Virus record (IMG/VR): IMGVR_UViG_3300031992_004563
Location: 64,001-128,000 of that record
Length of the DNA stretch: 64,000 nucleotides
Origin: a virus
Taxonomy: Duplodnaviria; Heunggongvirae; Uroviricota; Caudoviricetes
Direction: 5' to 3' (one strand)
The notes beneath the pieces are model-generated. The model saw only the letters and a program-made list of their open reading frames with translations, was not told where the DNA came from and made no database searches. Shown piece by piece: positions 2,533-22,076 of the stretch. Each line of letters opens with the position of its first letter. Position 1 is the first letter of the stretch. Made by a program: the position numbers and the translations under genes.

Positions 2533-2675
2533 GGCCCATTCGTCTATCGGCTAGGACGCCAGATTTACGTTGGAAAGAAAACCATACTATTAAAAACTCC
2601 AGTTTGGAATATAATATTTGATTATATTATATTTCACTCATTCTGGAAAGAGCAGTTCGATTCTGCTATGGGCTA
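2533..2675 (+). tRNA. tRNA-Glu with 71-nt insertion in the anticodon loop (CTC or TTC)
   Basis: 5' half GGCCCAT..CCAGATT and 3' half (C)TCATTCTGG..ATGGGCTA flank an insert at about 2566-2637; the anticodon arm matches the neighbouring intact tRNA-Glu. Confidence 0.85.
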
Positions 2676-2699
2676 CTTTACAATTAAAATTAAAAATAT

Positions 2700-2778
2700 G
2701 GATCATTCGAATATCGGTTAGTTCGCCAGATTTTCATTCTGGAAAGGTTTTAGGGTTCGACTCCCACATGATCTACCA
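2700..2778 (+). tRNA. tRNA-Glu(TTC)
   Basis: CCAGA-TTTTCAT-TCTGG; encoded CCA; imperfect T-stem. Confidence 0.8.
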
Positions 2779-2897
2779 AATTAAACTTGCAATCCAACGA
2801 TTACTATATGTAAGTTCGGGATTTGGATGGGCACTACCAAACGGACCGAGAACCGCGTGCATTCGAGATTGGTGACGGTGTGGAGAGACACACTCTT

Positions 2898-2972
2898 GGT
2901 CCGGTAGCTCAGTGGTGTAGTAGCAGGACACTCATAATGTCAAGGTCGGGGGTTCAAATCCCTCTCGGACCA
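2898..2972 (+). tRNA. tRNA-Met/Ile2(CAT)
   Basis: Cloverleaf; GACA-CTCATAA-TGTC. Confidence 0.85.
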
Positions 2973-3309
2973 CGTGAAAAACCGTAGTGTATACTTTATA
3001 TGTTTCACCAAAATGCGGTAACCTCCATATGCCGGCAAACATAAAATATGGCAAGGACAAAGTGAAAACGTATTTTCAGAAAAAAGTTGAAATTATATAC
3101 TGAATGTAATAGAGTCTGGTCATGGCCTGACATTTTGTAGGAGAGTTAACTATTCTGCAAGGTCATATGGAATCAACCCAGTGAAAGACTACGTATATAT
3201 CTCATGAGATTTCAACTTCATTATGGTGCTCTTCTAGAGAGCATGCGGGACAGCGACGTGGCAACCGCAGTGGAAGATTCTCTTCTCCAATAAATACTAG
3301 GCGTCTCCA

Positions 3310-3341
3310 ATAGTTGAAATATGGATAACAACTATAAAACC
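3310..3341 (+). repeat. Seventh copy of the ATAGTTGA..CAACT hairpin motif
   Basis: ATAGTTGAAATATGGATAACAACTATAAAACC, directly after TCTCCA and just before a tRNA-Met. Confidence 0.75.
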
Positions 3342-3350
3342 ATATAATAT

Positions 3351-3422
3351 AGCGGGGTAGAGCAGTGGTAGCTCGTCAGGCTCATAACCTGAAGGCCGGG
3401 GGTTCGAATCCCTCCCCCGCAA
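3351..3422 (+). tRNA. tRNA-Met(CAT), initiator-like
   Basis: 1:72 mismatch, GCGGGG/CCCCGC acceptor, TCAGG-CTCATAA-CCTGA. Confidence 0.9.
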
Positions 3423-3529
3423 CAGAGGCCCATGTCTGAAATGGCTTGCAGGTTCGAGTCCTGTCTTTGGTGTTTCATCATTTTATGGTGTTCCTACCGA
3501 GGTGGCGAAAGTGGTAAACGCGTGGGTAA
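3423..3529 (+). tRNA. Circularly permuted tRNA-Leu-type gene (3' half 3423-3472, 5' half 3496-3529)
   Basis: Long variable arm, GGTTCGAGTCC T-arm and CTTTGGT come before ACCGAGG-TGGCGAAAGTGGTAAACGCG; acceptor strands and TGGGT/GCCCA anticodon stem pair across the halves. Confidence 0.75.
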
Positions 3530-3736
3530 GATTGTTGTTGGCTATAACAACATTAAACAAATATAGCAACTTTAACTAATATATTATGTTAGACACTAAT
3601 TATATTCCTTAAATGAAAAGTAAAGTATTGAGTAATAGAATACATGAGGGTTCGTACCCTGGAGTAGAAATCGACCAAGAAATGCATATAATTATATGGG
3701 TGCAACTCCCATAATAATATTTTAGTTAATCATATT

Positions 3737-3811
3737 GGTATCATCGTTCAACGGCTAGGATGCAACACTGTCACTGTTGTGATGCGGGTTCGATTCCCGC
3801 TGGTACCGCCA
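3737..3811 (+). tRNA. tRNA-Asp(GTC)
   Basis: CAACA-CTGTCAC-TGTTG; encoded CCA. Confidence 0.93.
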
Positions 3812-3848
3812 ATTTAGGTTAAGTCCAAAGATATCCAGGTAGTTTGTA

Positions 3849-4121
3849 AGGATTAAAGAATAGAACTTTAAACACTTCGCTAATATGCTTTTGAGGGAGC
3901 ACATGGAATATCGAATTGTTACCGGCGTAACATGAACCGGGAGTCGTAAGGAACATAGTCCGAAGTCAACAAAATGAGAATTTGATGCGTAAGCCAGGTG
4001 TGCGACGAACTGGACATCGCCTCTCAATAACGCAAACTGGACAAGTGTAACCAGATAGCTGTCGTATATTAGTCTATTCAATGGTATACGTCTCAGAGCA
4101 CTTCGGCGGACCTCTAATCCT
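3849..4121 (+). ncRNA. Candidate ~270-nt structured RNA
   Basis: GC-enriched, non-coding, closed by AGGATTA/TAATCCT. Confidence 0.4.
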
Positions 4122-4554
4122 AAATTTTTAATTTAAACATAAATTTGTAAATCAAATCCTGGGTTAATCGCCGGGTTGACGGTTCGGAAAAAAGACGAAC
4201 TAGGCATGCAATACTGCTAAGAGAAACTTTTTGTATTGCGCGGACTTTGGTGGTTGAAGCGCAGAATGCAGATATTGATTAACTGAAAACCATCTTTTGG
4301 ATATATGTTATTGGTTTAACATATATTCACTCTAAAGCAACACGCATTATCAATTAAGTAGGTTGCTCCATATTAAGTGAAAGTAATAGTTGACTACTAT
4401 ATGATAACTTAAAGAAGAGTTGAAGTGGTACATAGACTAATTAGGGCTAAATAAATTGGTTGACGAGATAAAATGGGAACTAGTCATTCCCATTCTCGAA
4501 AAAGTTAATTCTTTAAGAATTTTTGGAAAACTTTAAAAACGAAAAATTCACCGA

Positions 4555-4629
4555 GGGCCCTTCATATAGTCTGGTTTAGTATGTCAGCTCTGCAAGCTGA
4601 TCACGCCGGTTCGAATCCGGCAGGGTCCA
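4555..4629 (+). tRNA. tRNA-Ala(TGC)
   Basis: G3:U70 pair in GGGCCCT/AGGGTCC; loop TCTGCAA (C33). Confidence 0.75.
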
Positions 4630-5376
4630 CTGATTTTCAATAAGTAACAGAAACGAGGTTGAGGTATAGATGATGGGAAAATATGACAGAGACTAAACAG
4701 AGACGACTTATTGAAACAACACTATAATATCTAATATTCAGTGGGGAGTAGGCTTGACCGAAATTAAAACATCTGACCCATGTTGGTAGTTAGATATTTG
4801 AAATAACGTACGAAAAAGATGAAACAAACTCCACCGTTTCATACATTGGGAGATGATCTTTTGGTGTTGTGGAAGCCTGCAATGGTGTAAGAAAATCGCA
4901 ATGGTTTATCCATATTATAACGTGTAATATGGGATTTAAATTCCACCAATTTTTGAATTATAATTAAATGCGTAGAACGATCAATAAAATGCGACATACG
5001 AAAGTCACATGGGATAAATGGAATTTGCTATTATACCGCAATTCATAAGTATGTTCACTGTGGAGAATCGGGAATCAGTGGTTTAATTATTTACACTTGG
5101 AGATTACGTATCAATATAGGTGTGTATATTTTAAAAGTGACGGTCGGGGTGAAAATCCAAGCGAGTTTAAACGGGAAGGAAGAGAGAAAATTTATCAAGT
5201 CATATGCTCCTGATAAATATACGGCTTTTAAAATAAATTATATCCTGTATGGGTTCTATACACCGAGCACTTATAATCCTCGTCATTATATACTGCTCGT
5301 TAAAATTATTTGGTTTATAGCACTAGTCTTGATTTTTCTTAAATAAATATAATATAAAATACATTTATTAGTTAAT

Positions 5377-6093
5377 ATGTTATATTGTAAATATTGTGGC
5401 AAAGAATGTAAAAATTTAAATTCATTAAGACAGCATGAGATTAGGTGTAAACAAAATCCTAATAGAATTAAAATGGATTTATCAAAATGGAAGTGCCCAC
5501 CAGAAAAAAGAAAATTAGGAACAAAAAATAAAGTTGCTTTAACTAATGGAAATAAAAACAAATATCTATTTCCTAATGAAGCAGAAGAATTTTTACAAAA
5601 TAATTTAGATTGGCATAAAGGATTTACAATTATAAATCATGGTCCAAATTTAGGAATTGCATCCACTCCTGAAAAAGAGGCTGAGAGAAAAAGAAAAATT
5701 TCAGAAACAATGAAGAAAAATCCATTAGCTGGTGGTAGAAGAATAGGTAGTGGACGAGGAAAACAAGGATGGTATAAAGGAATTTATTGTGATAGTTCTT
5801 GGGAACTTGCATTTTTGGTATATTATTTAGATCATAATAAAAATATAAAGAGATGTGAAGAACGAAGAGAATATATTTTTAATAATGAAAAACATACTTA
5901 TATTCCTGATTTTATAACAGATGATGGTATTATAGAAATAAAGGGATATAAAACACAACAATGGAAATCCAAATTAGAACAAAATCCTGATATAAAAGTT
6001 TTATATGAAGATGATATTAAACCATATTTAGATTATGCAACATCATTATATGGCCAGTATTATTGGGAAGTTCTATATGAAAATAAAAAATAA
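5377..6093 (+). CDS. Free-standing homing-endonuclease-like protein (Zn finger, NUMOD3-like, PD-(D/E)XK)
   Basis: CKYC..HEIRC, KRKISETMK, DSSWE, YIPDF..IEIKG motifs; located inside the tRNA array. Confidence 0.75.
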   Translation: MLYCKYCGKECKNLNSLRQHEIRCKQNPNRIKMDLSKWKCPPEKRKLGTKNKVALTNGNKNKYLFPNEAEEFLQNNLDWHKGFTIINHGPNLGIASTPEKEAERKRKISETMKKNPLAGGRRIGSGRGKQGWYKGIYCDSSWELAFLVYYLDHNKNIKRCEERREYIFNNEKHTYIPDFITDDGIIEIKGYKTQQWKSKLEQNPDIKVLYEDDIKPYLDYATSLYGQYYWEVLYENKK

Positions 6094-6097
6094 GTTT

Positions 6098-6182
6098 GGA
6101 GGCATGCCGAAGTGGTCATAACGGCACTGACTTGAAATCAGCTGTGGCTCACGCCCCGGGGGTTCGAATCCCTCTGCCTCCG
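6098..6182 (+). tRNA. tRNA-Ser(TGA)
   Basis: Long variable arm; CTGA-CTTGAAA-TCAG. Confidence 0.92.
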
Positions 6183-6311
6183 CCGTTAAATATAAACCTG
6201 CATAGTAAAGTTCCTATTATAGGTTCGATTCCTAAAATTACTGGATGGTTATTACTTTCCGCGGGTTTAACTTATAATAAAATGCATAAAGTTGTTCCTA
6301 TTTAGTTTATT

Positions 6312-6399
6312 GAAAAGCAGGAAGTCGGGGGTTCGAGTCCCTCTCTCCACACAAATAATATAAAATGTGGAGATAACTCAGATGGTAGAGTGCCCGCCT
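6312..6399 (+). tRNA. Circularly permuted tRNA-Phe(GAA) (3' half 6312-6351, 5' half 6367-6399)
   Basis: GAAAAGCAGG..GGTTCGAGTCC..TCTCCACA precedes GTGGAGATAACTCAGATGGTAGAGTGCCCGCCT; joining gives a perfect GTGGAGA/TCTCCAC acceptor and loop CT-GAA-AA. Confidence 0.85.
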
Positions 6400-6459
6400 A
6401 AACATACACTTCGCGTTTTATCCCCCTTATAATAGTTTGAACATTGCTATTTAAATAAT

Positions 6460-6643
6460 GTTACGCCTTACCCGGTTTAAGTTGAAAGAGTGCCCGGGCT
6501 GTAGATCTAAAAGCCAAAAGCTAATCTATAAAAAACTTATCGCTCCATTTGCACTTGGAAGGTTGAGTGCAATTTTTAATATATCATTACTGAGGTGGAT
6601 AGGAGAAGCATATAAAACCCGAATCCTGAGGAAATGGCGTAAC
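6460..6643 (+). ncRNA. Candidate structured RNA
   Basis: Closed by GTTACGCC/GGCGTAAC; internal hairpin TTGCACTT..GAGTGCAA. Confidence 0.4.
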
Positions 6644-6995
6644 GACAAAAAGTTAGAAGGGCCGAAGAAACCGTCGTTGCTTGATATACGGTGTGGAAAG
6701 GCGTGGTAAGTAATGATTATTTTTATAATTCTCAAACCTTGTGGGTGCCAGAAAACACCACATGCAGAAAGTATTTAATATTGCTAGCGATTAAAGAAAT
6801 TTGGTTCGTTATTGAGAATTTTTTCTTTAATAAACATTATCGAATCCATTTAAGTAATATTCGATATAACTGAGAATAATTACATTAATATTAAATGGCG
6901 TTGCTACTCATCTGGTATGGAGGCATACTGAGTACCTTGGTCTATTACGAGAAGATAGGCCGGTGTTTAAATTTAAGATAATGTTTATTTTTAAT

Positions 6996-7078
6996 GGGAG
7001 AGTTCCTAATGCGGTAATTAGGACCAGACTGTAAATCTGGCGGCTTAGCCTTCGGGGGTTCGAATCCCTCCTCTCCCA
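6996..7078 (+). tRNA. tRNA-Tyr(GTA)
   Basis: CCAGA-CTGTAAA-TCTGG; long variable arm. Confidence 0.92.
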
Positions 7079-7099
7079 CAGTTTTTAATAAACTTATAT

Positions 7100-7174
7100 G
7101 GTGTCCGTAGCTCAATTGGTAGAGTGCTGGATTGTGGTTCCAGTGGTTCTCGGATCATACCCGAGCGGGCACCC
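7100..7174 (+). tRNA. tRNA-His(GTG)
   Basis: G-1; CTGGA-TTGTGGT-TCCAG. Confidence 0.9.
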
Positions 7175-7307
7175 CTACTTAGGATGTACACCAGGCAGAC
7201 TGTTGAGTCATATAAACAGTATAATCCTATTTTGAATGTTGGTTTTAGAGTGAGGGGTTCTGAAAGACTTAAAGAGAACTCACCTACTGGATGCATACAG
7301 TGATTAT

Positions 7308-7375
7308 CGCCACGGGAATCGTAGTTGATTTTTAGAGCCCTTAGCTAAGGTGTCGGAGCGTTACCGGCCGTGGTG
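7308..7375 (+). ncRNA. Anticodon-less tRNA-like RNA
   Basis: CGCCACG/CGTGGTG acceptor and T-arm GTCGG-AGCGTTA-CCGGC; anticodon arm replaced by CCTT-AGCT-AAGG. Confidence 0.5.
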
Positions 7376-7387
7376 TCAAAATTACAT

Positions 7388-7469
7388 GGGCTTATGGCGT
7401 AATAGCGAGCCGCGCCAGACTTAGGATCTGGTTCCGAAAGGAGTAAGGGTTGGAGTCCCTTTAAGCCCA
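7388..7469 (+). tRNA. tRNA-Leu(TAG)
   Basis: CCAGA-CTTAGGA-TCTGG; long variable arm. Confidence 0.9.
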
Positions 7470-7483
7470 CATTTAAAAAGAAT

Positions 7484-7677
7484 AATCATTCGATATTTTT
7501 ATGATGTTATATTAAGGGTTCAAATCCCAATTGGGGGCTTGTCGACGAACAAGATATGTATCTTATATAGCTATACTCAAAGTCCCTCGCATTTTTCGAG
7601 TGTTATATAAGTAAGGTCGGACATTATAAAGAAATTGTTAAAACCGTGGAGAGGTGCACATCAAAACGTGAATGATT
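7484..7677 (+). ncRNA. Candidate structured RNA with a T-loop-like hairpin
   Basis: Closed by AATCATTC/GAATGATT; contains GGGTTCAAATCCC. Confidence 0.35.
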
Positions 7678-7680
7678 AAT

Positions 7681-7756
7681 GGTCCTTTAGCTCAGCTGGT
7701 ATTAGAGCACTTGGCTTACATCCAAGGGGTCGTAGGTTCGAATCCTACAGGGACCA
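7681..7756 (+). tRNA. tRNA-Val(TAC)
   Basis: CTTGG-CTTACAT-CCAAG. Confidence 0.93.
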
Positions 7757-7850
7757 CAATAAGAATAAGAAAAAATAAAGGATTCCAAACAGTTATTCAA
7801 AGTATCTTTTCTTTTTATGTTGTTTTTCTTGGTTCTAACTTTGAATATTT

Positions 7851-7921
7851 GCAGGTATAGCACAACAGTCGTGCACCAGTTTGCCATACTGGGGATCCCG
7901 GGGCAGCACCGGGTATCTGCT
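7851..7921 (+). tRNA. tRNA-Gly(GCC)
   Basis: CCAGT-TTGCCAT-ACTGG; atypical T-loop. Confidence 0.8.
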
Positions 7922-8035
7922 CAACATTGCAGGTTCTTATTAGAATGAAAGTCTGGAAAATCCAGTGCTAATAAGGTGAAATTAAAATTGTAAGAGACTG
8001 CAAAGGGGTTGAATAATGTGGTCAACCCATAAAAA

Positions 8036-8111
8036 CTAGGTGTAGAGGAGCCCGGTTTATCTCGCGTGAATTGGAATCACGAGCACGCAGGTTCGAATCC
8101 TGCCATCTAGA
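8036..8111 (+). tRNA. tRNA-Pro(TGG), second copy
   Basis: CGTGA-ATTGGAA-TCACG; CTAGGTG/CATCTAG acceptor. Confidence 0.85.
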
Positions 8112-8114
8112 CTT

Positions 8115-8319
8115 CGCGAATTAGTGTAATATGTGCCCGTAAAATTTCAGATGTACGGTTAACACAACGGCCAATGTTAATTAGTCTGAATGGTGTTCCT
8201 TTAGTATGAAATGTATATACAATGTACAGTGTGTATACAAAGTAAGAAACAGGTTGGGAGGATCAGAGCACGGCACCCGGAGATGGTGTTAGTTACGTGG
8301 AAGTCGTAGTTCGCAACCA
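8115..8319 (+). ncRNA. Enlarged tRNA-like RNA ending in ACCA
   Basis: C-GCGAAT/GTTCGC-A-ACCA acceptor, D-stem GTGT/ACAC, T-arm TACG-TGGAAGT-CGTA; about 125 nt in place of the anticodon arm. Confidence 0.5.
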
Positions 8320-8793
8320 ATAAATTAATATTCGAGGGTCTACGAGTGAATTAACACGGAGAGCCAAACCAAAAACAACCGAGTAGGTTTGGAGAGAGTA
8401 GAGATGGTGTGGCGTAAGTGGACAGGTTGTAGTTTGTGATATGCCTAGAAGTGGTGGCCTGCTGGAAAATGGTGGCATGTAGAATATTGATTTTTAATTT
8501 TTTAATGTGAAGGATAACACAATAAAACCCTTGTTGCTAACATTCTTGGGCAGGTAATGAAAATGGCTAGGTGTATGACCGGTGACTTGGTGAAATTCCA
8601 ACATTCCTAGTGAAGAAAAATGATTCGCGGTTAATTTTTCTTAAAGGTCATTTTTAAATATAATCACGATACTAAGACGCGTACCGACGGGTCAGTTCCA
8701 GTATTCTGGTATAAAACTCTCATATATGTCCAAATATATTTTGGTGCACCTGAAGTTGGATGAAGAGAGGAACATTAGTATGTGTGGTTTTTT

Positions 8794-8865
8794 GCCCCGG
8801 TGGTGAAATGCATATCACGAGTGACTACGGATCACTTATTCTGGGTTGGAATCCCAGCTGGGGTA
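8794..8865 (+). tRNA. tRNA-Arg(ACG)
   Basis: AGTGA-CTACGGA-TCACT. Confidence 0.9.
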
Positions 8866-8925
8866 CTATAGAAACAAAGTTCATTTAGAGCCTATAATAA
8901 TTAAAATAATAAAACTATATTATAT

Positions 8926-9471
8926 ATGAGAATCGATTCATTAGAAAGCATCTGGAATAACTTGGGGTATGTTATTCAGAAACATAATGATTATAAAAAG
9001 ACTAAGAGAAATCTTAGAAAGCTGGTTTATAATTGTTCTCCAAAACATATGAAAGATGGTTCAATAAAAAACACTTTTATTGAAGTTGGATATCTTTATT
9101 TAACAAGTGCTGTTAAAGATGATTCTCAAGGTTTTGTATGGTTTGATTGTACTGATCATATTAATTATGATGAAGAACATAGAATTATATTCCCAACAAT
9201 GCCTGCACAATTTTGGGATAAATTAGTTGGAAAGCATAATACTAATATTGCTCAACTTTATAATGATAAAACAAAAGAATATTTGCATAAAGATTCTAAT
9301 ATAGAATGGAATATTGTAAAGGGCCAAGCATTATTTACTACAAGGCAAGAAGCAGAGGATTATATTAAACAATGTGAAAATGGTGAAATTGAGCTTCCTG
9401 AATTCTTTTTAAAAGTTGAAAGAGTTATGACTAATCCAACACGAGAAGATTATGAGAACATTGGAAAATAA
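8926..9471 (+). CDS. Hypothetical protein
   Basis: 181-aa ORF with phage-like composition. Confidence 0.8.
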   Translation: MRIDSLESIWNNLGYVIQKHNDYKKTKRNLRKLVYNCSPKHMKDGSIKNTFIEVGYLYLTSAVKDDSQGFVWFDCTDHINYDEEHRIIFPTMPAQFWDKLVGKHNTNIAQLYNDKTKEYLHKDSNIEWNIVKGQALFTTRQEAEDYIKQCENGEIELPEFFLKVERVMTNPTREDYENIGK

Positions 9472-9483
9472 ACAACAATAATT

Positions 9484-9723
9484 ATGGAACTTAAAGATAT
9501 TGTAAAAGGCCAAGCCGATTTATCTTGTGTAATTGCAGGAGGAATTGCTGAATATATTTTAACAGATATAAATGGAATCAAATATCAATTGCAAATTAAT
9601 TTGGCAGATAAACATGATGTTGGTGAAACTGCTACATTCCAAACACATTATGATAAAGCAATTATTTTAATGAGATGGATTCGTAGAGCAATTGAAAAAG
9701 ATGAATTAATTAAACTTAATTAA
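9484..9723 (+). CDS. Hypothetical protein
   Basis: 79-aa ORF in tandem with the previous gene. Confidence 0.75.
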   Translation: MELKDIVKGQADLSCVIAGGIAEYILTDINGIKYQLQINLADKHDVGETATFQTHYDKAIILMRWIRRAIEKDELIKLN

Positions 9724-9731
9724 TAATTCTT

Positions 9732-9804
9732 GAGCCGGTAGCTCAGATGGTAGAGCAGCAGACTCTTAATCTGCGGGCCGTGGGTTCGAGTCCCACCCGG
9801 CTCA
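9732..9804 (+). tRNA. tRNA-Lys(CTT)
   Basis: GCAGA-CTCTTAA-TCTGC. Confidence 0.95.
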
Positions 9805-9809
9805 CAAAT

Positions 9810-9883
9810 GGCGAGGTAGCTCAGTTGGTTAGAGCGCAGCATTCATAATGCTGAGGTCGTGGGATCGTGACCCTCCCTCGCTA
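9810..9883 (+). tRNA. tRNA-Met(CAT)
   Basis: CAGCA-TTCATAA-TGCTG. Confidence 0.88.
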
Positions 9884-9890
9884 CATAAAT

Positions 9891-9964
9891 ATCCTATTAG
9901 CCCAATCGGTAGAGGCAATAGTTTCAAAAACTATACAGTGTTGGTTCGAATCCAACATGGGATA
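9891..9964 (+). tRNA. tRNA-Leu(CAA), short variable arm
   Basis: ATAGT-TTCAAAA-ACTAT; GGTTCGAATCC T-arm. Confidence 0.8.
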
Positions 9965-10032
9965 CAAAAGATAAATGACATTTATGGTTATTGCACATCC
10001 AAAAAGCATGTATAAAAATAAAAATAAATGTT

Positions 10033-10359
10033 ATGAAGAAGATTTTTTTAATTATGTGTCTTCTATCATCATTTATCTTTTGTAATGCCGAACCTTCGTA
10101 TGAAAGTTCAACAAAAAAGGCAAAAGAATCACGCATAGAAGTGGTGAATGAGAAGACAGTTATTTTCAAAAATGTCGTAAAAATAGAAATAATTACTAAA
10201 GATAAAAATCAAATAACATATGTATATGATTTGAAAAACAGTAAATTAGTAATTGTTGCTAAAGGTGCATTTGAGATTGATACAAAAATGGGTGATTATT
10301 TAGTTCAATCTTCTAAGAAAATAACAAAAACCGAATATGATTTTATTGAAGAAATTTAA
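10033..10359 (+). CDS. Hypothetical protein with signal peptide
   Basis: MKKIFLIMCLLSSFIFCNA N-terminus. Confidence 0.7.
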   Translation: MKKIFLIMCLLSSFIFCNAEPSYESSTKKAKESRIEVVNEKTVIFKNVVKIEIITKDKNQITYVYDLKNSKLVIVAKGAFEIDTKMGDYLVQSSKKITKTEYDFIEEI

Positions 10360-10582
10360 TCATATTTATTTATGTTAAATATAATTAAATATATTTATGA
10401 ATAATTATATTTTTATATTTAACAAAATTTTTGAAATAAATATAAAAAGAAAATAATTTTTAAGAGGTGGTATCCTTAAAAACTATTTTTAGAAATATAA
10501 GTTATAATTATAAAGCATTTTAATGTTTTATTATACAAGATACCACTTTTAAGTATAATAATCATTTTAATGCTTTTATTTT

Positions 10583-11785
10583 ATGAAGTTAGTTGAACAA
10601 CATATTATAAAATCTAATCATTAGTTTTACAAAGAACTTGATAATTTATGCTTTTTATCTAAGAATCTATATAATCAAGCTCTTTATAGGATTAGACAAT
10701 AGTTTTTTGAAGATAAAACTTTTAAAAATTATTATGATTTAAATAGAGAGCTTCATGATGAAAACTAGATAGACTATAGATCACTTCCATCTAATACATC
10801 ACAAGAAACATTAAAACTAGTTAACCAAAATTATAAATCATTTTTCTAGAGTTTAAACAAACAAATTAAAGGCGTTAAAATTCCTAAATATTTAGATAAA
10901 ATTAAAGGAAGATAGATAGTTGTTTATAATTATTCAACAATATGTGGAAAAAAAGATTTAGGATTTTTTAAAATTCCAAAAACTAATTTACAATTTAAAA
11001 CTAAATAGAAAAATATTAAGCAAGTTAGAATAGTTCCTAAAAATAATTATATAGTTTTAGAAGTTATTTATGAAGCTTCTATCAAAGAATTATTAAAAGA
11101 TAATAAAAGATATATGTCTATTGATTTAGGAATTGATAATTTAGCTAGTTGTTCTAGTAATGTAACTAAATCTTTTATAATCAATGGAAAACCTGCCAAA
11201 TCAATAAATCAATATTATAATAAAAAGAAAGCTAATCTTCAATCTGAATTAAAACTTAAACAAAATAAAAATACATCAAAGCAAATATAGAATTTAACTT
11301 TAAAGAGAAACAATAAAATAAAAGATTATTTTCATAAAGCATCCAGATATATTGTTAATCAATTAGTTAACCAATCCATTAATACACTTATAATAGGAAA
11401 GAATGATGGATGGAAACAAGAGACAAATCTAGGTGTTGTTAATAATCAAAATTTTGTAAATATTCCTCATTAGATGTTTATAAATCAACTAAAATATAAA
11501 TGTCAATTAGAAGGAATAAATGTCATTGAACAAGAAGAAAGTTATACTAGCAAAGTAAGTTTTTTTGATAATGACTATATTCCAACTTATAAACAAAATG
11601 ATGAACTATTTAATCCATCTGGAAAAAGAATCAAAAGAGGTTTATATAAAACTAAAAATAATTTATTAATTAATGCTGATATAAATGGTTCATTAAACAT
11701 AATGAGAAAATATTTAAATGTAGTTTGTGATGACTTAATTAGTTTAACAAATAGAGGGTTTGTGATTAATCCAGTTAAAATTTAG
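10583..11785 (+). mobile_element. tnpB: IS200/IS605-family TnpB RNA-guided nuclease, 400 aa under code 15
   Basis: MKLVEQHIIK..SKNLYNQALY, SIDLGIDNL (RuvC-I), QEESYTS, NADINGSLNI; about 8 in-frame TAG; no tnpA; inverted repeat GTGGTATC/GATACCAC upstream. Confidence 0.9.
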
Positions 11786-11854
11786 TTTTAACAAATAAAA
11801 ACTTGTGAATAGTTTTTAATATCATTTGATTCCAAATGTATCAGAAATTTATAA

Positions 11855-12028
11855 GAATTTATGCAGTCCATCGCGCCCATTCCAAAAGATATAAGAGGTG
11901 AGGAAGTTCAGGACACTTATTTGGAAGTGAAAGTCTAAGTATAGGAGGTTACCCAAATTACTGCCCCATGGTAAGACGAATAGTTAAATGATGGAAATAG
12001 GTACAGAATCCTGGCTATTACATAATTC
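11855..12028 (+). ncRNA. rnpB: Minimal RNase P RNA
   Basis: GAGGAAGTTCAGGA (11900) and ACAGAATCCTGGCT (12003) match CR-I/CR-V and form P4 with a bulged U; termini GAATT(T)ATG/CATAATTC pair as P1. Confidence 0.8.
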
Positions 12029-12800: not shown

Positions 12801-12886
12801 GTCTCCGTAGCTCAGTTGGTTCCGCAAGGCTTGAGAGCACCCGCCTTTTAAGCGGGGGGTCGTGGGTTCGAATCCCACCGGGGACA
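12801..12886 (+). tRNA. tRNA-Lys(TTT) with enlarged D-loop
   Basis: CCCGC-CTTTTAA-GCGGG; D-loop carries a CC-GCAA-GG mini-hairpin. Confidence 0.88.
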
Positions 12887-13142
12887 CAAAAATCCAATTT
12901 AATTTGGTTGACTAAATTTCAATAAGAAATTCGCTACAAACACATAGCGTTACGATTGCTGTTTGACTTGAATATTCAAAACGAATATTAGATTTGTTAA
13001 TTAGATTAAATTAACACTATTTAGGACTATATTAGATTGCTATGAAAAATGAGTGATTCTAATGATATGGCGAGGAGTCCTTCACGAGGTCAGTGTTTTA
13101 GAGCCATATCTTATTTTTAATCTCAATACGCAAGTATATGAA

Positions 13143-13175
13143 AAAGGAGACTGGAATGAGTCTCCTTTATTTTTT
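13143..13175 (+). terminator. Intrinsic terminator
   Basis: AAAGGAGACT-GGAATG-AGTCTCCTTT then a T-run. Confidence 0.75.
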
Positions 13176-13189
13176 ATTTTTATTAAATT

Positions 13190-13240
13190 AACTTCTATTT
13201 TTTAGATTACATAAAAAATTATAATTTTGTATCGTTAATT
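13190..13240 (+). promoter_or_regulatory. Class 1 promoter (AACTTCTATTTTTTAG..TAATTTTG)
   Basis: Recurs at about 18766, 28379, 30038 and 61534; TAnnTTTG is the Bacteroidetes -7 element. Confidence 0.75.
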
Positions 13241-13257
13241 TAAAAAAGATAAAAATT

Positions 13258-14100
13258 ATGGCATTTATCAAAAATGAAAGTCCAAAAATTGGCGATTGGG
13301 TAATCACACAGAAATCACACTCTGCATGTGCTGGTACAATGACTAAAGGCAGTCGTGTAAAAATCACTGACGTTGATCCAATGAGAGGTTATTCAATTGT
13401 TGATGAGGAAGGAAATCGTCTTTGTGAAATTGGGTGGATAATTTAAAACATAAAATTATGGAAGGTTGGTTAGCACGAGATAAATCTGGTTCTTTATGTT
13501 TTTATATATATGAACCATATAAGTCAGCTGCTGGTTTTTGGAAGCCAGTTGAGGATGAACCATTAGGAAACCAAGTAGATGAATGTGAAGCATCTAAAAA
13601 TATTAAATGGGAAGATAATCGAGCCACTCATGTAAAAGTTAATTTTGAAATTTTGTAATAATATGAAAACATCTATTAGAAAAAATGCATATGCTGTTCC
13701 AAGTGGAAGTTGGGATATCGCTGAACGAGTTCATGTTTCCGGAAAACATGGACGTGATAGAAAACAACATTATCTTTCCAAACAAGCGCGTTTGGCTGTT
13801 AAAAATGGAAAGGTTGATGGTGTTGATCTTAAAAATATTGAGGAGTAAATAACTACAAAATAAATTTTAAAAATGGATTCAAAACGACAACAAGAAATTA
13901 AAAATGAAATGGCAGGCCGAATAATTGATGCCTGTGGTAGCACCGGGGTTTTAGCGGCAGTGGATAACGATAAACTGGAAGGCGATGTTAAAGTTCGTCA
14001 TCAGAAAGCTATGGCAGAAGCTAAAAAGCTTACCGGTCGAAAGAAACGAATTGATCCTAATGTTCAAGCAATATTTGCACGAATGTATGGATTAATTTAA
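13258..14100 (+). CDS. Four small hypothetical genes (13258-13446, ~13458-13658, ~13663-13848, 13873-14100)
   Basis: Tightly packed ORFs after a class 1 promoter. Confidence 0.7.
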
Positions 14101-14221
14101 AGCAAAGTAGACTTTTTCAGAAAATAGTCTATAATAAATAATAAGAATTAATTTTGTATAAGGTTTATTCAAAAGGTTGAATTTATATACCTTACAAAAT
14201 TTATTTTGATCTTTGATTTAT

Positions 14222-14309
14222 GGCGCGGTGGTGGAATTGGTATACACGAGGGACTTAAAATCCCTTGGGGGCCTATTGCTCCTTGAGAGTTCGAGTCTCT
14301 CCCGCGCTA
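14222..14309 (+). tRNA. tRNA-Leu(TAA)
   Basis: AGGGA-CTTAAAA-TCCCT; long variable arm. Confidence 0.93.
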
Positions 14310-14317
14310 CAATCATT

Positions 14318-14352
14318 AAAAGCTAGATGATTAATTTCATCTAGCTTTTTTC
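14318..14352 (+). terminator. Intrinsic terminator
   Basis: AAGCTAGATGA/TCATCTAGCTT followed by a T-run. Confidence 0.75.
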
Positions 14353-14356
14353 ATTA

Positions 14357-14384
14357 AACTATCTTTTATTTTTTTCATATAATA
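14357..14384 (+). promoter_or_regulatory. Class 2 promoter (AAACT-N16/17-TATAAT)
   Basis: Same spacing at 18717, 25613, 26691, 32639, 43178, 48639 and 60105, each upstream of a gene start. Confidence 0.65.
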
Positions 14385-14404
14385 TAAAAATTAATTTTAT
14401 ATTT

Positions 14405-14788
14405 ATGGATAGTTTAAAAGAAACTTTTGAAAAACACGGAATTTCTGCTAAAGAATTTGATGATTTTTTAAAAGGCAGATTGAATTTAGAAGTTATTAAA
14501 GATTTGAAAACATGTTGGGATAAACACGCATTAAGTTTTTATACTAAAAAGACATATAATGATTTTGAAGAATGCGTAAGAAATGCTCTAAATAGAATAG
14601 GATTAGGAGAGCATTCATTTGGTGTTGTTTGTGATGAAAGAAATAATCCGCCTGAAATTATAGATAGTCAAAAATTACGAGTGGCAATTAGATTTTGCGC
14701 ATTAATATATGGGTCATTTTATGAAACAGAATACACATTGCCAGATGCATTTGAACAATTAGAACTTAAAAAACATTTATTGGTATGA
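14405..14788 (+). CDS. Hypothetical protein
   Basis: 127-aa ORF. Confidence 0.75.
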   Translation: MDSLKETFEKHGISAKEFDDFLKGRLNLEVIKDLKTCWDKHALSFYTKKTYNDFEECVRNALNRIGLGEHSFGVVCDERNNPPEIIDSQKLRVAIRFCALIYGSFYETEYTLPDAFEQLELKKHLLV

Positions 14789-14936
14789 GAGGAGTTATTA
14801 CATTAACACAAGATGAGATTAAGAAGTTATATAAAACTATTAAAAAATGGAATGACCCATCTGCATTATTAAAATACTCTTCAGACAAAATAGAAATATT
14901 AATTGAAGATTTAGAAAATTATAAAACACATAAATT

Positions 14937-15272
14937 ATGAAATATAGAAAAAAACCTGTTATTATAGAAGCATTACAATGGAATTGTGATATGCTGCATA
15001 TAGATGAAATGATACATTTTTTAGGTTATTCTGATGATCTAAAATTTACATTTGAAAATGAGTATGAAATTGATACACCAACATTTAAAATGAAATTATG
15101 GCCAGATCCAGAATATACAAGTTTTAATAATGAAGTTACTTTAGATATTAAAACGCTTGAAGGATTAATGCATGTTAGCAAAGGTGACTATGTAATTAAA
15201 GGTGTAGAAGGAGAATATTATCCTTGTAAACCAGACATTTTTGAGAAAACATACGAAAAAGTTGATGAGTAA
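14937..15272 (+). CDS. Conserved phage protein
   Basis: MKYRKKPVIIEALQW..YPCKPDIFEKTY signature. Confidence 0.85.
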   Translation: MKYRKKPVIIEALQWNCDMLHIDEMIHFLGYSDDLKFTFENEYEIDTPTFKMKLWPDPEYTSFNNEVTLDIKTLEGLMHVSKGDYVIKGVEGEYYPCKPDIFEKTYEKVDE

Positions 15273-15747: not shown

Positions 15748-15965
15748 TAAAATGTGATTTATATTTACATGGAAGCAAAAAGTTTATAATAACTTTGTCA
15801 TTTTATGAAATTCCAAAAGTTAATGAATCAATTCATTTGGATGGATTTAATATGTATTATGTTACTGAAGTTAGACATGTATTTAGTTGTAAATATATTA
15901 ATAGTAACACAATTGAAACAATTACTGATGAAAGTGAAATACAAATATTTGTAAAAGAATTATGA
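15744..15965 (+). CDS. Hypothetical protein
   Basis: ATGA overlaps with both neighbours. Confidence 0.7.
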   Translation: MIKCDLYLHGSKKFIITLSFYEIPKVNESIHLDGFNMYYVTEVRHVFSCKYINSNTIETITDESEIQIFVKEL

Positions 15966-16342
15966 AGAAATTTATTATAGCTATAGATTTTGATGGTGTA
16001 ATTGCGCAAATTAACAAAGATTGGGTACCAGGTACACCAAACTATCCAGGACCACTTGTTGAAGATGCAGCAAAATATATTCGTCAATTACATAAAGATG
16101 GGCACCAAATAATTATTTGGACATGCCGTGGAGGACAAAATCTTTATTTAGCAGAACAATTCCTTGATGAACATAATATTCCATATGATAGAATCAATGA
16201 TAATGTTGATGGGTTTTATGATAGATTTAAACATAACACAAGAAAGGTTCATGCTGATATTTATATTGATGATAATCAGATAGGAGGCCTTCCTTCATGG
16301 GCAGAAATGTATGAAATAATAACAAATAAAAGTAAACAATAA
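15962..16342 (+). CDS. HAD-superfamily phosphatase
   Basis: IAIDFDG, IWTCR, ADIYIDD motifs. Confidence 0.88.
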   Translation: MKKFIIAIDFDGVIAQINKDWVPGTPNYPGPLVEDAAKYIRQLHKDGHQIIIWTCRGGQNLYLAEQFLDEHNIPYDRINDNVDGFYDRFKHNTRKVHADIYIDDNQIGGLPSWAEMYEIITNKSKQ

Positions 16343-16616: not shown

Positions 16617-16631
16617 TTATGAAATTTAATT

Positions 16632-19232: not shown

Positions 19233-19243
19233 ATAATAAATTT

Positions 19244-19906
19244 ATGAATAATGAACGAATAAAATATCCTAGAACATTTCATTTGCCTTATTCACAATCA
19301 AAGACAGATGATGATAAGACATTGCCAAATGATGATCAATTCAAAGGAATGGAAGTCGTGGTAACAATCAAGATGGATGGTGAAAATACAACTGTCTATC
19401 CTGATGGTTATATTCATGCTCGTTCTCTTGATGGAACTGGCTATACATGGCAAAATTGGTTGAAGTCATATGTTTGGGAATTTTGTGGCGCACTTGCAGA
19501 TGATGAACGAATAATTGGTGAAAACTTGTATGCAAAACATTCAATTGGTTATAAGTTCAATGATATAAAAGATACATTCCAGGTATTTGCAATGTGTTTT
19601 AATTTTGATGGTGTTGATTATTTCTATGATTGGGACTATATTGAAATGTTTTGTGAAGGTTATGGATTAAAACATGTTGATGTAATATATAGAGGTATTT
19701 ATGATAAAGAAAAAATCATGGAGGCCTTTGAAAATAAGAAAAAAGAACTAGCAGAACAAGGACAAGATATTGAAGGTTTTGTTGTTCGTGATGCTTATGA
19801 ATTTCCAACAAGTGAATTTCAAAAACACGTTGCAAAGTTTGTTCGCGCAAATCATGTTCAAACTGATAAACATTGGAGAGAAACTTGGACTAAAAATGAA
19901 TTTTAA
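19244..19906 (+). CDS. ATP-dependent RNA ligase family protein
   Basis: KYPRTFHLP, KMDGEN (motif I), GENLYAKHSI, EGFVVR, AKFVRANHVQTD. Confidence 0.88.
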   Translation: MNNERIKYPRTFHLPYSQSKTDDDKTLPNDDQFKGMEVVVTIKMDGENTTVYPDGYIHARSLDGTGYTWQNWLKSYVWEFCGALADDERIIGENLYAKHSIGYKFNDIKDTFQVFAMCFNFDGVDYFYDWDYIEMFCEGYGLKHVDVIYRGIYDKEKIMEAFENKKKELAEQGQDIEGFVVRDAYEFPTSEFQKHVAKFVRANHVQTDKHWRETWTKNEF

Positions 19907-19910
19907 AACT

Positions 19911-20309
19911 ATGGCAGAAGTATATACATCATATTTTGCAAACTTAAAAAATCTACCAGATAATTTATGTCCAATATCAATCTGTGGTAAAGCCCCAGAT
20001 TGGTATAATGGCATTCAATATAAAGTACTTGCACCTAAATATTGGTTCTTTAAGAAATATGAGGAAGATGGCGATAAGGAATTTTATACTGAAGCATTTA
20101 ATCGTGATGTATTAAATAATCTTAAAGCCTGGGAAGTACTTAATAAATTAAAAGAACTTGCAGGTAATAAAATACCATGTTTGATATGTTATGAAAAACC
20201 GGATGATTTTTGCCATAGACATCTTGTAGCAGAATGGCTTCAAAATAATTGTAATATTAAAGTTGAAGAATTTGAAATAGAAAAAACACATAAATTATTT
20301 AAATTATGA
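19911..20309 (+). CDS. DUF488-family protein
   Basis: YTSYFA..LAP..LICYEKPDDFCHRHLVAEWL. Confidence 0.8.
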   Translation: MAEVYTSYFANLKNLPDNLCPISICGKAPDWYNGIQYKVLAPKYWFFKKYEEDGDKEFYTEAFNRDVLNNLKAWEVLNKLKELAGNKIPCLICYEKPDDFCHRHLVAEWLQNNCNIKVEEFEIEKTHKLFKL

Positions 20310-20539
20310 AAGTACGAATTGAATATCGATATAGTAATGATCATGGATATTGTCGTGATTTTGTTTGCGATGAAAATAATATGCCTTTACCTGGTATGAA
20401 AGTGCGGGATTTGGTTAGTTATTCAACATTAGTTAATATTCAACAAACTAGAATCGATGGAGATGGATTAAAACATTATGTTGGGTTAATTAAGGAAGAT
20501 AATGGTGAATCAAGCAATGGGCAAATATATGATTTCTAA
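20306..20539 (+). CDS. Hypothetical protein
   Basis: In-operon ORF. Confidence 0.7.
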   Translation: MKVRIEYRYSNDHGYCRDFVCDENNMPLPGMKVRDLVSYSTLVNIQQTRIDGDGLKHYVGLIKEDNGESSNGQIYDF

Positions 20540-20542
20540 TAT

Positions 20543-21007
20543 ATGAAATACTATAAAGGCAATATAAATCCGGAACCTAATACAATTTTTGTATTTGGCA
20601 GTAATCCAGAAGGTAGACATGGCGCAGGTGCAGCAAAAATAGCAAGAGAAAAATTTGGTGCTATTTATGGAGTTGGTGAAGGATTACAAGGTAATGCATA
20701 TGCATTGCCTACAAAGGATTTAAGAGTAAAAGAAAATAATGGTTATCGTTCTATTTCAAAAGAACAAATTATTGAGAATATCAAAAAACTATATAAATGT
20801 GCAATTGAATATCCGGAATTAGATTTTAAAATTGCATATCGAAATATAGAAAAACCATCATTAAATGGATATACTGGAATTGAAATGATAAAAATGTTTG
20901 ACAATGCAGGCCCTATTCCAGAAAATATTTGGTTTTCACAAGAATGGCATGATTTTTATTACAGACATTTACATAATGATGGGCAAACAGTAGAAAATTG
21001 GTTTTAA
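20543..21007 (+). CDS. Macro-like phage protein (A1S_2505 type)
   Basis: IFVFGSNPEGRHGAGAA..GEGLQGNAYALPTK. Confidence 0.8.
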   Translation: MKYYKGNINPEPNTIFVFGSNPEGRHGAGAAKIAREKFGAIYGVGEGLQGNAYALPTKDLRVKENNGYRSISKEQIIENIKKLYKCAIEYPELDFKIAYRNIEKPSLNGYTGIEMIKMFDNAGPIPENIWFSQEWHDFYYRHLHNDGQTVENWF

Positions 21008-21012
21008 ATAAT

Positions 21013-21441
21013 ATGAGAACAATTAAATTTAGAGGTAAATTTGTTTATGCAAATCCTGATGGATCTCTTAAATGGGTTTATGGAGATTTTGGCCATAGTG
21101 TTGTACCTGGAAAAGCAGTAATTAATGAAATAATTCCTTATAATGAAGGTGATTTTATTGCACATACAGAAGTATTAATTGGAACAATTTGCCAATTTAC
21201 TGGGGTTCATGATAAAAATGGTGTAGAAATATATGAAGGTGATATTATTCGTGCATATGATAGTAAAAATAATGTAATTCTTCATCAAATTTATTATCTT
21301 GAAAAAGATGCACGATTTGCTACAAAGTTAATTGGATATGATGAATTAAGCGAAGGTGAGCTTACACAAAAATGGGTTAATGAAATAGGTTTTGAAGTTA
21401 TTGGAAATATATTTGATAATCCAGAATTAATTAAAAAATGA
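21013..21441 (+). CDS. YopX family protein
   Basis: MRTIKFRG..QFTGVHDKNGVEIYEGDI..EVIGNIFDNPEL. Confidence 0.92.
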   Translation: MRTIKFRGKFVYANPDGSLKWVYGDFGHSVVPGKAVINEIIPYNEGDFIAHTEVLIGTICQFTGVHDKNGVEIYEGDIIRAYDSKNNVILHQIYYLEKDARFATKLIGYDELSEGELTQKWVNEIGFEVIGNIFDNPELIKK

Positions 21442-22076
21442 TTGATTTAAATAAACATATTATTTGTAGTTTTCCATACGGTTCTGCAACATATGGAATT
21501 AAACCTACTGAATATTCAGATGTAGATATAGTTACTATAGTGGATGATTCTGTAGATTTTTCAGCATATTATAATGAAATATATGAGGAAAAAATATCTA
21601 AAGATGGTGTAGAAATTGATACTCAATATATAAAAGAGTCTAATTTTATTGAGATGGTTAAAAACCATCATATTATTGGCTTGGAAAGTATGTGGCTTCC
21701 TAAAGAAATGATTAATGGTGATTATAAATATGCTCAATATTTTGAATTGGACCTATGGAAACTACGTCAAACCATTTCAAGCATTGTAAGTAATGCATGG
21801 GCAAAATGTCATAAGAAACTTACAGTAGAAAAAGATTATGATTTTTATCGTGGTTTAAAATCATTATTTCATTGTTTAAGATTACTTGATTTTGGTATTC
21901 AAATTGCAACATATGGAAAGATTGTAAATTATGCATCAGCAAATCATTATTGGATAGATTTATGGGATAATGATATAGTTCCATCTCATAAATGGGAAGA
22001 TTATAAAGCAAAGTATCAACCAGAATTGAATAGACTAAAGAGTGAATTTGTAAAACTTTGCCCAAAACCTATATAA
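21438..22076 (+). CDS. Pol-beta superfamily nucleotidyltransferase
   Basis: YGSATYG..SDVD motif; KSLFHCLR helical C-domain. Confidence 0.8.
   Translation: MIDLNKHIICSFPYGSATYGIKPTEYSDVDIVTIVDDSVDFSAYYNEIYEEKISKDGVEIDTQYIKESNFIEMVKNHHIIGLESMWLPKEMINGDYKYAQYFELDLWKLRQTISSIVSNAWAKCHKKLTVEKDYDFYRGLKSLFHCLRLLDFGIQIATYGKIVNYASANHYWIDLWDNDIVPSHKWEDYKAKYQPELNRLKSEFVKLCPKPI

Follow-up and report, generated by a model that had tools for sequence, protein, structure and literature searches.

Discontinuous tRNA genes in a phage tRNA array

The window, i.e., the whole stretch of 64,000 nucleotides that was analysed, belongs to a gut jumbo phage that is related to the Lak megaphages and recodes TAG. The genome record of this phage (G000) is 76% complete, and its terminase is about 44% identical to that of the Lak megaphages. 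Three discontinuous tRNA genes are found in the window: a tRNA-Glu with an insert, a permuted Leu-type gene and a permuted tRNA-Phe (all window features described here lie on the plus strand). A default ARAGORN run on the window missed all three. A strict half-pairing scan of positions 1-15000 returned exactly these three genes, with 0 matches in 100 Markov-1 resamples, which confirms the claim of the first-pass annotation that three tRNA genes are broken in the anticodon loop. Half-pairs taken from two different real tRNAs pass the matching stem test (7/7 acceptor and at least 4/5 anticodon-stem pairs) in 35 of 42,368 cases. When the halves are joined by script, ARAGORN calls Glu, Leu and Phe. 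A fourth gene of this kind lies outside the window, at C1:46439-46679 of G000. Intact Glu(UUC) and Phe(GAA) genes are also present in this genome and, given this, the broken Glu and Phe copies are dispensable.

The interrupted tRNA-Glu gene spans 2533-2675. Its 5' exon (2533..2566; tRNA positions 1-34), for which the nearest intact bodies are Glu, is followed by a 71-nt insert (2567..2637) and by the 3' exon (2638..2675; positions 35-73). The insert is made of a short hairpin, an A-rich linker, a 12-bp hairpin (2606-2635) that has the size of an acceptor plus T arm, and then A and C. Joined at 34/35, the exons are called Glu(TTC) by ARAGORN, and removal of the insert restores a canonical tRNA; the anticodon arm is identical to that of the intact tRNA-Glu(UUC) at 2700..2778, which itself has the weakest tRNA score (40.1 bits) among the gathering-level matches. 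The boundary 2566/2638 also occurs in contigs bearing insert-less Glu genes, and the joint 2566>2638 was found in the contigs of one RNA run and likewise in those of two DNA runs. The best-supported Glu junction is 34/35.

In the permuted Leu-type gene, the 3' half (3424..3472; long variable arm, T arm and G73) comes immediately after N73-C74 of an initiator tRNA-Met (3351..3423), and the 5' half is found at 3496..3530. A cassette follows (3531..3721), with a hairpin at 3533-3552, an A-rich linker and a tRNA-like element (acceptor about 3582/3719, T arm 3696). The gene has the same parts as the Glu cassette, arranged in a permuted way, and its upstream N73-C74 comes from a real initiator tRNA. 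A contig of another strain (n=1) begins aligning at 3531, which is the predicted cassette start. The loop has the non-canonical A32/A33 in place of Y32/U33, and the product would have G73 along with an acceptor stem that contains three G-U pairs; this gene has probably degenerated or makes a mimic that does not decode.

The permuted tRNA-Phe(GAA) is made of a 3' half at 6310..6351, with A73 and a full 7-nt anticodon loop, and a 5' half (positions 1-33) at 6367..6399, preceded by a 15-nt AU-rich linker. There is no flanking tRNA-like end, and the pairing of the flanks is not significant, being equalled in 6.4% of shuffles. The Phe junction fits anywhere from 31/32 to 33/34 and, taken together with the Glu junction, this means that the break does not lie uniformly 5' of the wobble base. 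No back-joint of the Phe or Leu permuted gene is among the 15 joints listed (138 further; contigs only). The RNA-only joints 3981>4092 and 5076>4733 were left out of the count because they come from one sample only and the intervening bases are not known. Contig depth in RNA runs was left out as expression evidence, and runs with small word shares were excluded.

An RNase P-like RNA and the RNA-repair proteins

Downstream of the tRNA array, a minimal RNA of about 170 nt (11858..12027) carries P1, P2 and P4 motifs and is missing most of the S domain. An Rfam scan of this segment gave no match, including every RNase P model; whether or not splicing takes place, the locus shows how much of a jumbo phage's RNA array can escape the standard tRNA and Rfam scans. 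Both P4 motifs are present, at 11900 and 12003, and their A/U versus G/C covary in 22/22 matches bearing both motifs. Compensatory changes are seen in 17 of the 38 predicted pairs across eight homologues, and the P1 and P2 helices are supported by covariation. Judged from these sequence features, the segment is an RNase P-like RNA, and its cleavage of pre-tRNA 5' ends is putative. It shares with the type T RNase P RNA of Thermoproteaceae, which is described as minimal with its catalytic motifs kept (PMC7191817), the retention of catalytic-domain motifs and the loss of most of the S domain; it differs in being phage-encoded, about 170 nt long and invisible to Rfam models.

Three proteins named by the first-pass annotation were recovered with essentially the same assignments. 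The ORF at 19244..19906 encodes the catalytic domain only of an ATP-dependent RNA ligase (PF09414, E 1e-22); its structure model, built from 3 sequences, is too poor to use (pLDDT 39.5), and its profile matched no solved structure. The one at 15962..16342 encodes a small HAD phosphatase of 126 aa that is BT0820-like, albeit below the family cut-off; it stands alone with no fused kinase, unlike T4-type Pnk, and the fused T4-like kinase and HAD phosphatase (Pnk) of this phage is found at C1:155657-156637. The third, at 21438..22076, is a minimal nucleotidyltransferase of the Pol-beta superfamily with an RlaP-like lead: it has no Pfam match at E 0.01, RlaP PF10127 included, and its feature neighbours include RlaP clusters at 0.93-0.95. 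Its assignment as a class II CCA-adding enzyme was rejected, the sole PF01743 match in G000 being at C1:322108.

The tRNA array also encodes a 79-aa protein (9484..9723), common to Lak and G012 and found in 7 of the 40 tested. Its predicted fold has a pLDDT of 95, with a best VIA Z of 4.0 and no Foldseek PDB match at E 0.001, and its relatives are all unnamed viral proteins. From this model it is a candidate partner only, a nuclease being neither shown nor excluded by the fold search. RNase Z-like PF12706 is missing from 5/5 records. The protein-family scan covered the 141 proteins of 150 aa or more that are encoded up to C1:208 kb, plus 31 window ORFs, the rest of G000 being covered by single-family searches alone.

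Phage T4 repairs tRNAs by the Pnk/Rnl1 pathway. G000 shares with that pathway, and with the repair kits of jumbo phages, an ATP-dependent ligase, Pnk, a 2H phosphoesterase, a Pol-beta nucleotidyltransferase, a CCA enzyme and Thg1, and differs from T4 in that neither Rnl1 nor RtcB was found, the genes are scattered and the HAD of the window is stand-alone. RNA ligases, RlaP nucleotidyltransferases and phosphoesterases are common repair genes of jumbo phages (Iyer et al. 2021, PMC7824862). It is probable that the ligase, phosphatase and nucleotidyltransferase near the array belong to a general kit for RNA repair and not to a dedicated system.

Cassette design and the N74 boundary

Across the cases that were compared, the cassette has a common design, composed of a hairpin, an A-rich linker, a tRNA-like top half and N73-N74, and the 3' exon begins directly after N74, i.e., two bases past the nested tRNA-like end. 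This register is compatible with 10/10 cassette cases (eight tabulated by script, the window Glu taken from its fold and the G022 Leu read outside the script), which represent about four lineages, six of the cases being Lak; in seven of the ten, more than one register fits or the body is unclear. In three cases, N74 is the sole register that gives the loop of the nearest intact allele (Lak-A1 Thr versus Lak-C1, Lak-B1 Asn versus Lak-C1 and Lak-A1 Asn versus Lak-B1). The alternative cut after N73 would give Ala, Ser, Ser, and Val on an initiator body. The rule predicts exact junctions and is testable on short transcripts.

The leader hairpin starts 0-3 nt into the cassette in seven of the eight that were folded, and nine units of similar kind, with hairpin and A-tract, are found in the RNA array of G000. 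The fourth gene, at C1:46439, has an insert with a full T arm and reads Phe under the N74 rule, yet its nearest bodies are Ser. Lak-B1 carries nested introns. No intact ARAGORN-called twin of the nested Thr (A1), Gly(UCC) (A2, C1) or Phe was found in the Lak regions scanned.

Possible routes of maturation

The preferred reading, held tentatively with a probability of about 45%, is that the Glu insert is likely spliced with ends probably set by RNA shape, that the permuted genes likely give RNAs opened at the acceptor, and that the neighbouring proteins probably serve general repair. For Glu, the insert is likely removed by splicing, with its tRNA-like shape marking the ends: a first cut, 2-6 nt ahead of the leader hairpin, and a second after N74 would free two tRNA halves, which would stay paired, and an RNA ligase would seal them, this being either the phage PF09414 enzyme with the Pnk/2H healing encoded elsewhere or a host RtcB. 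The permuted Phe and Leu would yield tRNA-shaped RNAs opened at the acceptor stem. In the case of Phe, the 15-nt acceptor linker would be opened by RNase P together with 3' trimming and the addition of CCA, as happens with YrlA of M. smegmatis, on which RNase P cuts and CCA is added with no ligation step (PMC4201824). The anticodon-side ends of Phe might then be joined into a working tRNA. The earlier proposal that healing and sealing enzymes build these tRNAs survives in part: rebuilding by cutting and ligation is plausible and has gained a boundary rule, while the neighbours as the system are unsupported.

The alternative to be weighed first, unlikely but with a real chance of being correct, is that none of the three genes is spliced and that their products, YrlA-like permuted bodies and two-headed RNAs, are stable and imitate tRNAs or act as decoys, binding anticodon nucleases or proteins that recognise tRNAs. 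Phages often carry permuted tRNA-shaped RNAs (66 of the 83 matches that were parsed), and the order of T arm, closed acceptor stem and D arm in the permuted genes of the window is that of YrlA, which occurs in phages (Chen et al. 2014, PMC4201824). Permuted RNAs beside Ro60 are YrlA-type mimics, and one upstream motif is found in 20/20 TROVE-positive permuted matches. In some permuted matches a stable tetraloop or hairpin closes the acceptor, and several have Ser or Leu anticodons on short-arm bodies. The permuted element present in 15/15 Lak genomes keeps its stems by compensatory change and has no anticodon loop, and the window Leu has no canonical one. The window Phe matches the YrlA model RF02553 weakly (E 0.039, 26.8 bits, versus a gathering score of 69), and differs from YrlA in keeping a full anticodon loop and stem. 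Against mimicry, insert-less alleles in relatives reveal that the cassettes sit cleanly within normal tRNAs, with canonical loops restored by their removal. In addition, TROVE has no match in G000, G012, G016, Lak-A1 or Lak-B1; the Ro60 family (PF05731) has none in G000 (76% complete), where contiguous sequence extends for more than 4 kb to either side of both permuted genes. Neither family motif is present in the window Phe or Leu. The GNCGAAN0-1G motif near the 5' end is not in the window genes, nor is it in any of the 20 TROVE-linked matches as searched.

A bolder form of the splicing explanation, which is decidedly doubtful, holds that Lak-like phages have a BHB-free splicing in which the tRNA-shaped end (N74) and the leader hairpin define the sites, the permuted genes being cut likewise. 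With the same two cuts acting on a permuted order, Phe and Leu would therefore count as genuine circularly permuted tRNA genes whose maturation passes through RNA circles in the bacterial cell, with the 79-aa array protein possibly a factor.

It is improbable that the genes are leftovers of recombination, or selfish inserts, in a tRNA array that changes quickly, with nothing functional made from them. Besides the intact Glu and Phe copies of G000, this explanation draws on the scarcity of relatives: the three window genes have no conserved homologue in viral contigs or phage records, and the permuted Phe is not at the same site in the close relative G003, which has the ligase and the RNase P RNA. 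For the permuted Phe, an exact DNA search of viral contigs gave 0 matches and a degenerate one gave 2, neither permuted. Matches of blastn of 2400-8400 against phage records were limited to an endonuclease ORF and generic tRNAs, and protein-led searches for the locus gave few relatives. Recombination debris does exist in such arrays, given that tRNA 3' fragments directly behind tRNAs, with no matching 5' half, occur in G018. Nonetheless, the stems formed between the two halves are more intact than chance would allow, about four lineages share the cassette design with its 3' boundary fixed, and the cross-junction pairs are kept in 51 of 59 distinct permuted cases (null mean 10.5, maximum 19).

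The model of the first-pass annotation, a dedicated system made of the proteins at 19244, 15962 and 21438 with the phage RNase P RNA and a phage endonuclease, is very improbable. All of its parts are less than 20 kb apart on one strand, the ligase is the sole PF09414 match in G000, the nucleotidyltransferase is common to 4/4 Lak records tested (6/21 overall) and, in Lak, a different PF09414 gene adjoins the tRNA array. However, the expected co-occurrence of broken tRNAs with the ligase and rnpB does not hold: the ligase is matched by only 6 Prevotella-phage records, in pieces (A1, A2 and C1 among those listed), with no match found in Lak-B, and the RNase P CR-V motif is missing in 3/3 Lak genomes. 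In G016 (94% complete), RtcB and a permuted element are found without PF09414 (PF09414 is in 30/74 and RtcB in 7/74 records tested), and RNase P-like RNAs (22 of 32 pattern matches) are in many cases found in arrays without a scan-detected broken tRNA gene. Moreover, the T4-like Pnk, 2H phosphoesterase and class II CCA enzyme are encoded about 65-240 kb from the ligase gene.

The tRNA introns known from bacteria are self-splicing group I introns, which have a catalytic core and a terminal G. Group I-like introns do occur in tRNA anticodon loops of relatives, and algal and archaeal permuted tRNAs use BHB (PMC3978253), but a known route has almost no chance of applying here: the 71-nt Glu insert ends in C, has no core and no Rfam match, in none of the three genes do both BHB helices form at any junction from 29 to 37, and PF01974, sought for the EndA-type cutting enzyme that had been suggested, is absent from 5/5 records (G000 76% complete). 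Theta ribozymes were also set aside; the accessible part of their description has them cutting 3' of tRNAs, with no mention of introns or permutation.

The window genes share with the circularly permuted tRNA genes of algae and Thermofilum the order of 3' half, linker and 5' half, the complementary stems, the break in the anticodon arm and a linker whose removal would fall to RNase P and 3' processing. Those genes use a BHB motif and the splicing endonuclease (Soma 2014, PMC3978253, a review with no mention of 'phage' in its accessible part), whereas neither BHB nor EndA was found for the window genes. If true, a shape-defined and ligase-sealed phage route would bring the kinds of tRNA splicing to three.

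The Glu insert is a member of a class of tRNA introns already known from Lak. The 'enigmatic' non-group-I tRNA introns of Lak megaphages, one of which was noted as encoding a possible tRNA (Devoto et al. 2019, PMC6784885), are likewise inserts in anticodon loops of a related phage. They differ in that the Glu insert of G000 has shrunk to a 12-bp hairpin and that its parts are also seen in a permuted arrangement; the accessible part of their description gives no boundary rule, mechanism or permuted genes. Shape-defined splicing, if true, would account for these introns, unexplained since 2019. Under the N74 rule, the published Lak 'Tyr(GTA)' intron genes read Asn(GTT).

The discontinuous tRNA genes and their inserts

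The first-pass observation of discontinuous tRNA genes beside an RNase P-like RNA and neighbouring enzymes stands overall. A half-pairing scanner located the interrupted tRNA-Glu (2533-2675 of the window), the permuted Leu-type gene (3424-3530) and the permuted tRNA-Phe (6310-6399). A strict scan of window positions 1-15000 returned exactly these three and none in 100 Markov-1 resamples; when halves of real but different tRNAs are combined, 35 of 42,368 pairs match. When joined in script, the Glu halves read UUC at junction 34/35 and CUC at 33/34, Phe reads GAA for junctions 31/32 to 33/34, and the Leu anticodon comes out as CAG or GAG, in a loop that has A32/A33.

It has been reported that Lak phages carry tRNA introns, one possibly encoding a tRNA (Devoto et al., PMC6784885 with its Table S6, and the preprint). 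Ten inserts were collected from this genome (G000), four Lak genomes and two other phage records (G012, G022), representing about four lineages. All ten consist of a leader followed by a tRNA-like top half, and the leader is a hairpin with an A-rich linker in seven of the eight that were folded, the smallest cassette being the window Glu insert, with a 12-bp hairpin followed by A and C. A 3' exon starting after N74 of the top half is compatible with 10/10 cases, seven of which are not decisive, and in the other three (Thr of Lak-A1 and Asn of both Lak-B1 and Lak-A1) no other register restores the loop that the closest intact allele has. The exon junction shifts across cases (34/35 to 36/37) and its distance to the nested tRNA-like end is constant. 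Under this rule, cuts would fall behind N74 and 2-6 nt ahead of the leader hairpin. The scanner also found a fourth interrupted tRNA outside the window (G000 C1:46439-46679), which has G73 and, if the N74 rule is applied, the anticodon of Phe(GAA); its insert is 167 nt long, and a full tRNA-like element forms the end of it. Our preferred reading, tentatively put at a probability of about 0.45, is a cassette intron defined by shape together with a pair of permuted tRNA-like genes; if any enzymes serve them, these would be general repair enzymes.

A 5-bp hairpin with an A-tract occurs in nine copies (window 72-880 and 3310, C1:60294 and 60433), which divide GC-richer RNA-like units, also precede the initiator tRNA and resemble the insert leaders; these copies may be processing signals. 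A long variable arm marks tRNAs for Leu, Ser and Tyr, and G73 marks Asn. The published Lak Tyr(GTA) intron genes (L018:18187 and L099, minus strand, about 16150) have short-arm bodies with G73, and their nearest intact alleles are Asn. One insert family lies within two different Asn bodies, a hint that it may be mobile. Three tRNAs of the window were missed by ARAGORN: a CAU tRNA (115-190), an Asn-like gene whose D loop contains a hairpin (1185-1273) and a Gly(GCC) tRNA with an unusual T loop (7851-7921).

Permuted tRNA-like genes in the window and in other phages

The Leu 3' half starts directly after C74 of the initiator tRNA, and a hairpin, a linker and a tRNA-like element follow, in that order, 3' of the Leu 5' half; these are the parts of the cassette in permuted order. 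The anticodon predicted by the N74 rule is GAG, Leu(GAG) is the closest intact body, and one contig from another strain begins aligning at 3531. A phage record (G016) holds an element like the permuted Leu, flanked by two intact tRNAs. The loops of both are non-canonical, which makes a decoding product of either doubtful. That the genes give mimics that are never spliced is possible, if rather unlikely. It is less probable still that they are relics. For Glu(UUC) and Phe(GAA) the genome also has intact copies. Each of the 15 Lak records contains a permuted element without an anticodon, whose stems show compensatory changes between Lak A and B (L076:30960-31135, minus strand; L232:420-600).

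The pattern of a T arm followed by a D arm lacking U33 is found at at least 121 loci (about 220 estimated), 83 of which were read by the parser and 38 dropped. Among the matches listed, the downstream and upstream acceptor strands pair in 66/83 parsed (shuffle mean 5.3, maximum 13), pairing over the break at 27-28:42-43 occurs in 51/59 distinct cases (null mean 10.5, maximum 19), and U33 with a purine at 37 is seen in 47/59. A TROVE match was found in 20/53 records with permuted hits, again among the matches listed. All 20 TROVE-positive cases listed share one upstream motif, while 26 of the 29 TROVE-negative ones carry a different, CAGCA-type motif (49 of the 59 cases covered; many contigs are fragments). 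The TROVE-positive class fits YrlA as described in PMC4201824. The window Phe and Leu have neither upstream motif, and no TROVE (Ro60) match was found in G000, which is 76% complete. Given that the pattern excludes U33-bearing 5' halves, it cannot find the window Phe's own class. In the portions of the literature consulted, PMC10085705 and PMC3978253 included and bioRxiv preprint supplements aside, nothing on point was found on permuted phage tRNA genes.

Members of the TROVE-negative CAGCA-type class (L114, L119, L135, L162, L218 and others) have full anticodon arms and a paired flank. Other tRNA-like RNAs have long inserts replacing the anticodon arm (G000 C1:46781-46961 and 61586-61705; L025:150-275; L075:10296-10480), one of them with sequence common to G000 and G022. 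A small RNA with a T arm lies 3' of tRNA-Ser (window 6200-6262) and is kept, with one apparent compensatory change, in the close relative G003.

RNase P-like RNA, repair enzymes and RNA joints

The RNase P-like RNA at 11858-12027 has no Rfam match. A 17-letter pattern taken from it retrieved 32 viral loci, and a partner P4 motif lies downstream in 22 of them (A/U in 14, G/C in 8); P4 and the other helix names follow RNase P nomenclature. Compensatory changes were found at 17/38 predicted pairs among eight short homologues, the two outer helices included. The window RNA is similar to the S-domain-less type T (PMC7191817), in whose accessible text the word phage has 0 occurrences, and the sources consulted contained no publication about an RNase P RNA from phages.

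The ligase at 19244 belongs to PF09414, the HAD phosphatase at 15962 is BT0820-like, and the protein at 21438 is a minimal Pol-beta nucleotidyltransferase (NTase) with RlaP-like neighbours. Encoded elsewhere in the genome are a T4-like Pnk (C1:155657), a 2H phosphoesterase (C1:149163), a CCA enzyme of class II (C1:322108) and Thg1 (C1:53031). RNA-repair kits of this sort are described as common among jumbo phages in PMC7824862.

The proposal that ligase, HAD, NTase and phage RNase P RNA together form a dedicated system is improbable. The expected co-occurrence of split tRNAs with ligase and rnpB failed in Lak, where the ligase matches only six Prevotella-phage records of the 15 Lak records, in pieces (those listed being A1, A2 and C1), and the RNase P motif is missing from 3/3 genomes. 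The NTase was found in all four Lak records tested (6/21 overall), which counts in favour of a link. G003, a 17-kb fragment short of the Glu and Leu sites, has the ligase and the RNase P RNA and lacks the permuted Phe at the same site, and G016 has RtcB in place of the PF09414 ligase. The 79-aa array protein (ORF 9484-9723) is present in 7/40 records, six of those with nested inserts, a distribution confounded by kinship; its predicted fold is uninformative.

Known splicing routes are hardly credible. A BHB motif forms at no junction tested in the three genes, and Rnl1, RtcB, EndA and RNase Z-like proteins have no match in the 76%-complete G000. The RNA evidence consists of assembled contigs only. 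A Glu-skipping joint appears in the RNA run X4 and also in the DNA runs X1 and X5, so that it shows insert-less Glu genes and is no evidence of splicing. Of the 15 joints listed from contigs, none is a back-joint of a permuted gene. An ORF-free structured stretch (window 3815-5150, no Rfam match) has RNA-only joints 3981>4092 and 5076>4733 in one sample. Relatives have tRNAs with group I-like introns (L033:3034-3350; L022:9525-9885; L021:1228-1555; L083:17914, minus strand); after splicing, two such tRNAs would read CUA (Lak-B1, Gln body) and UCA (the phage record G002).

Genome setting

The G000 record, of which the window is C1:64001-128000, has 380,519 bases at 76% completeness, with 21 intact tRNAs called by ARAGORN and a terminase ~44% identical to that of Lak phages; the best-matching runs are sheep-gut metagenomes. 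The phage reads through TAG, as the TnpB-like ORF contains nine such codons in frame, and none of the intact tRNAs called in this 76%-complete genome is a CUA suppressor. The TnpB/IS605-type ORF (window 10583-11791) is open only if TAG = Gln. Free-standing endonuclease-like ORFs lie between tRNA genes (window 5377-6093, C1:47234-48247 and C1:62678-63709), and PARG-type and Acb3 (CBASS inhibitor) counter-defence genes were observed (window 51542-52381; L006:10217-11041).
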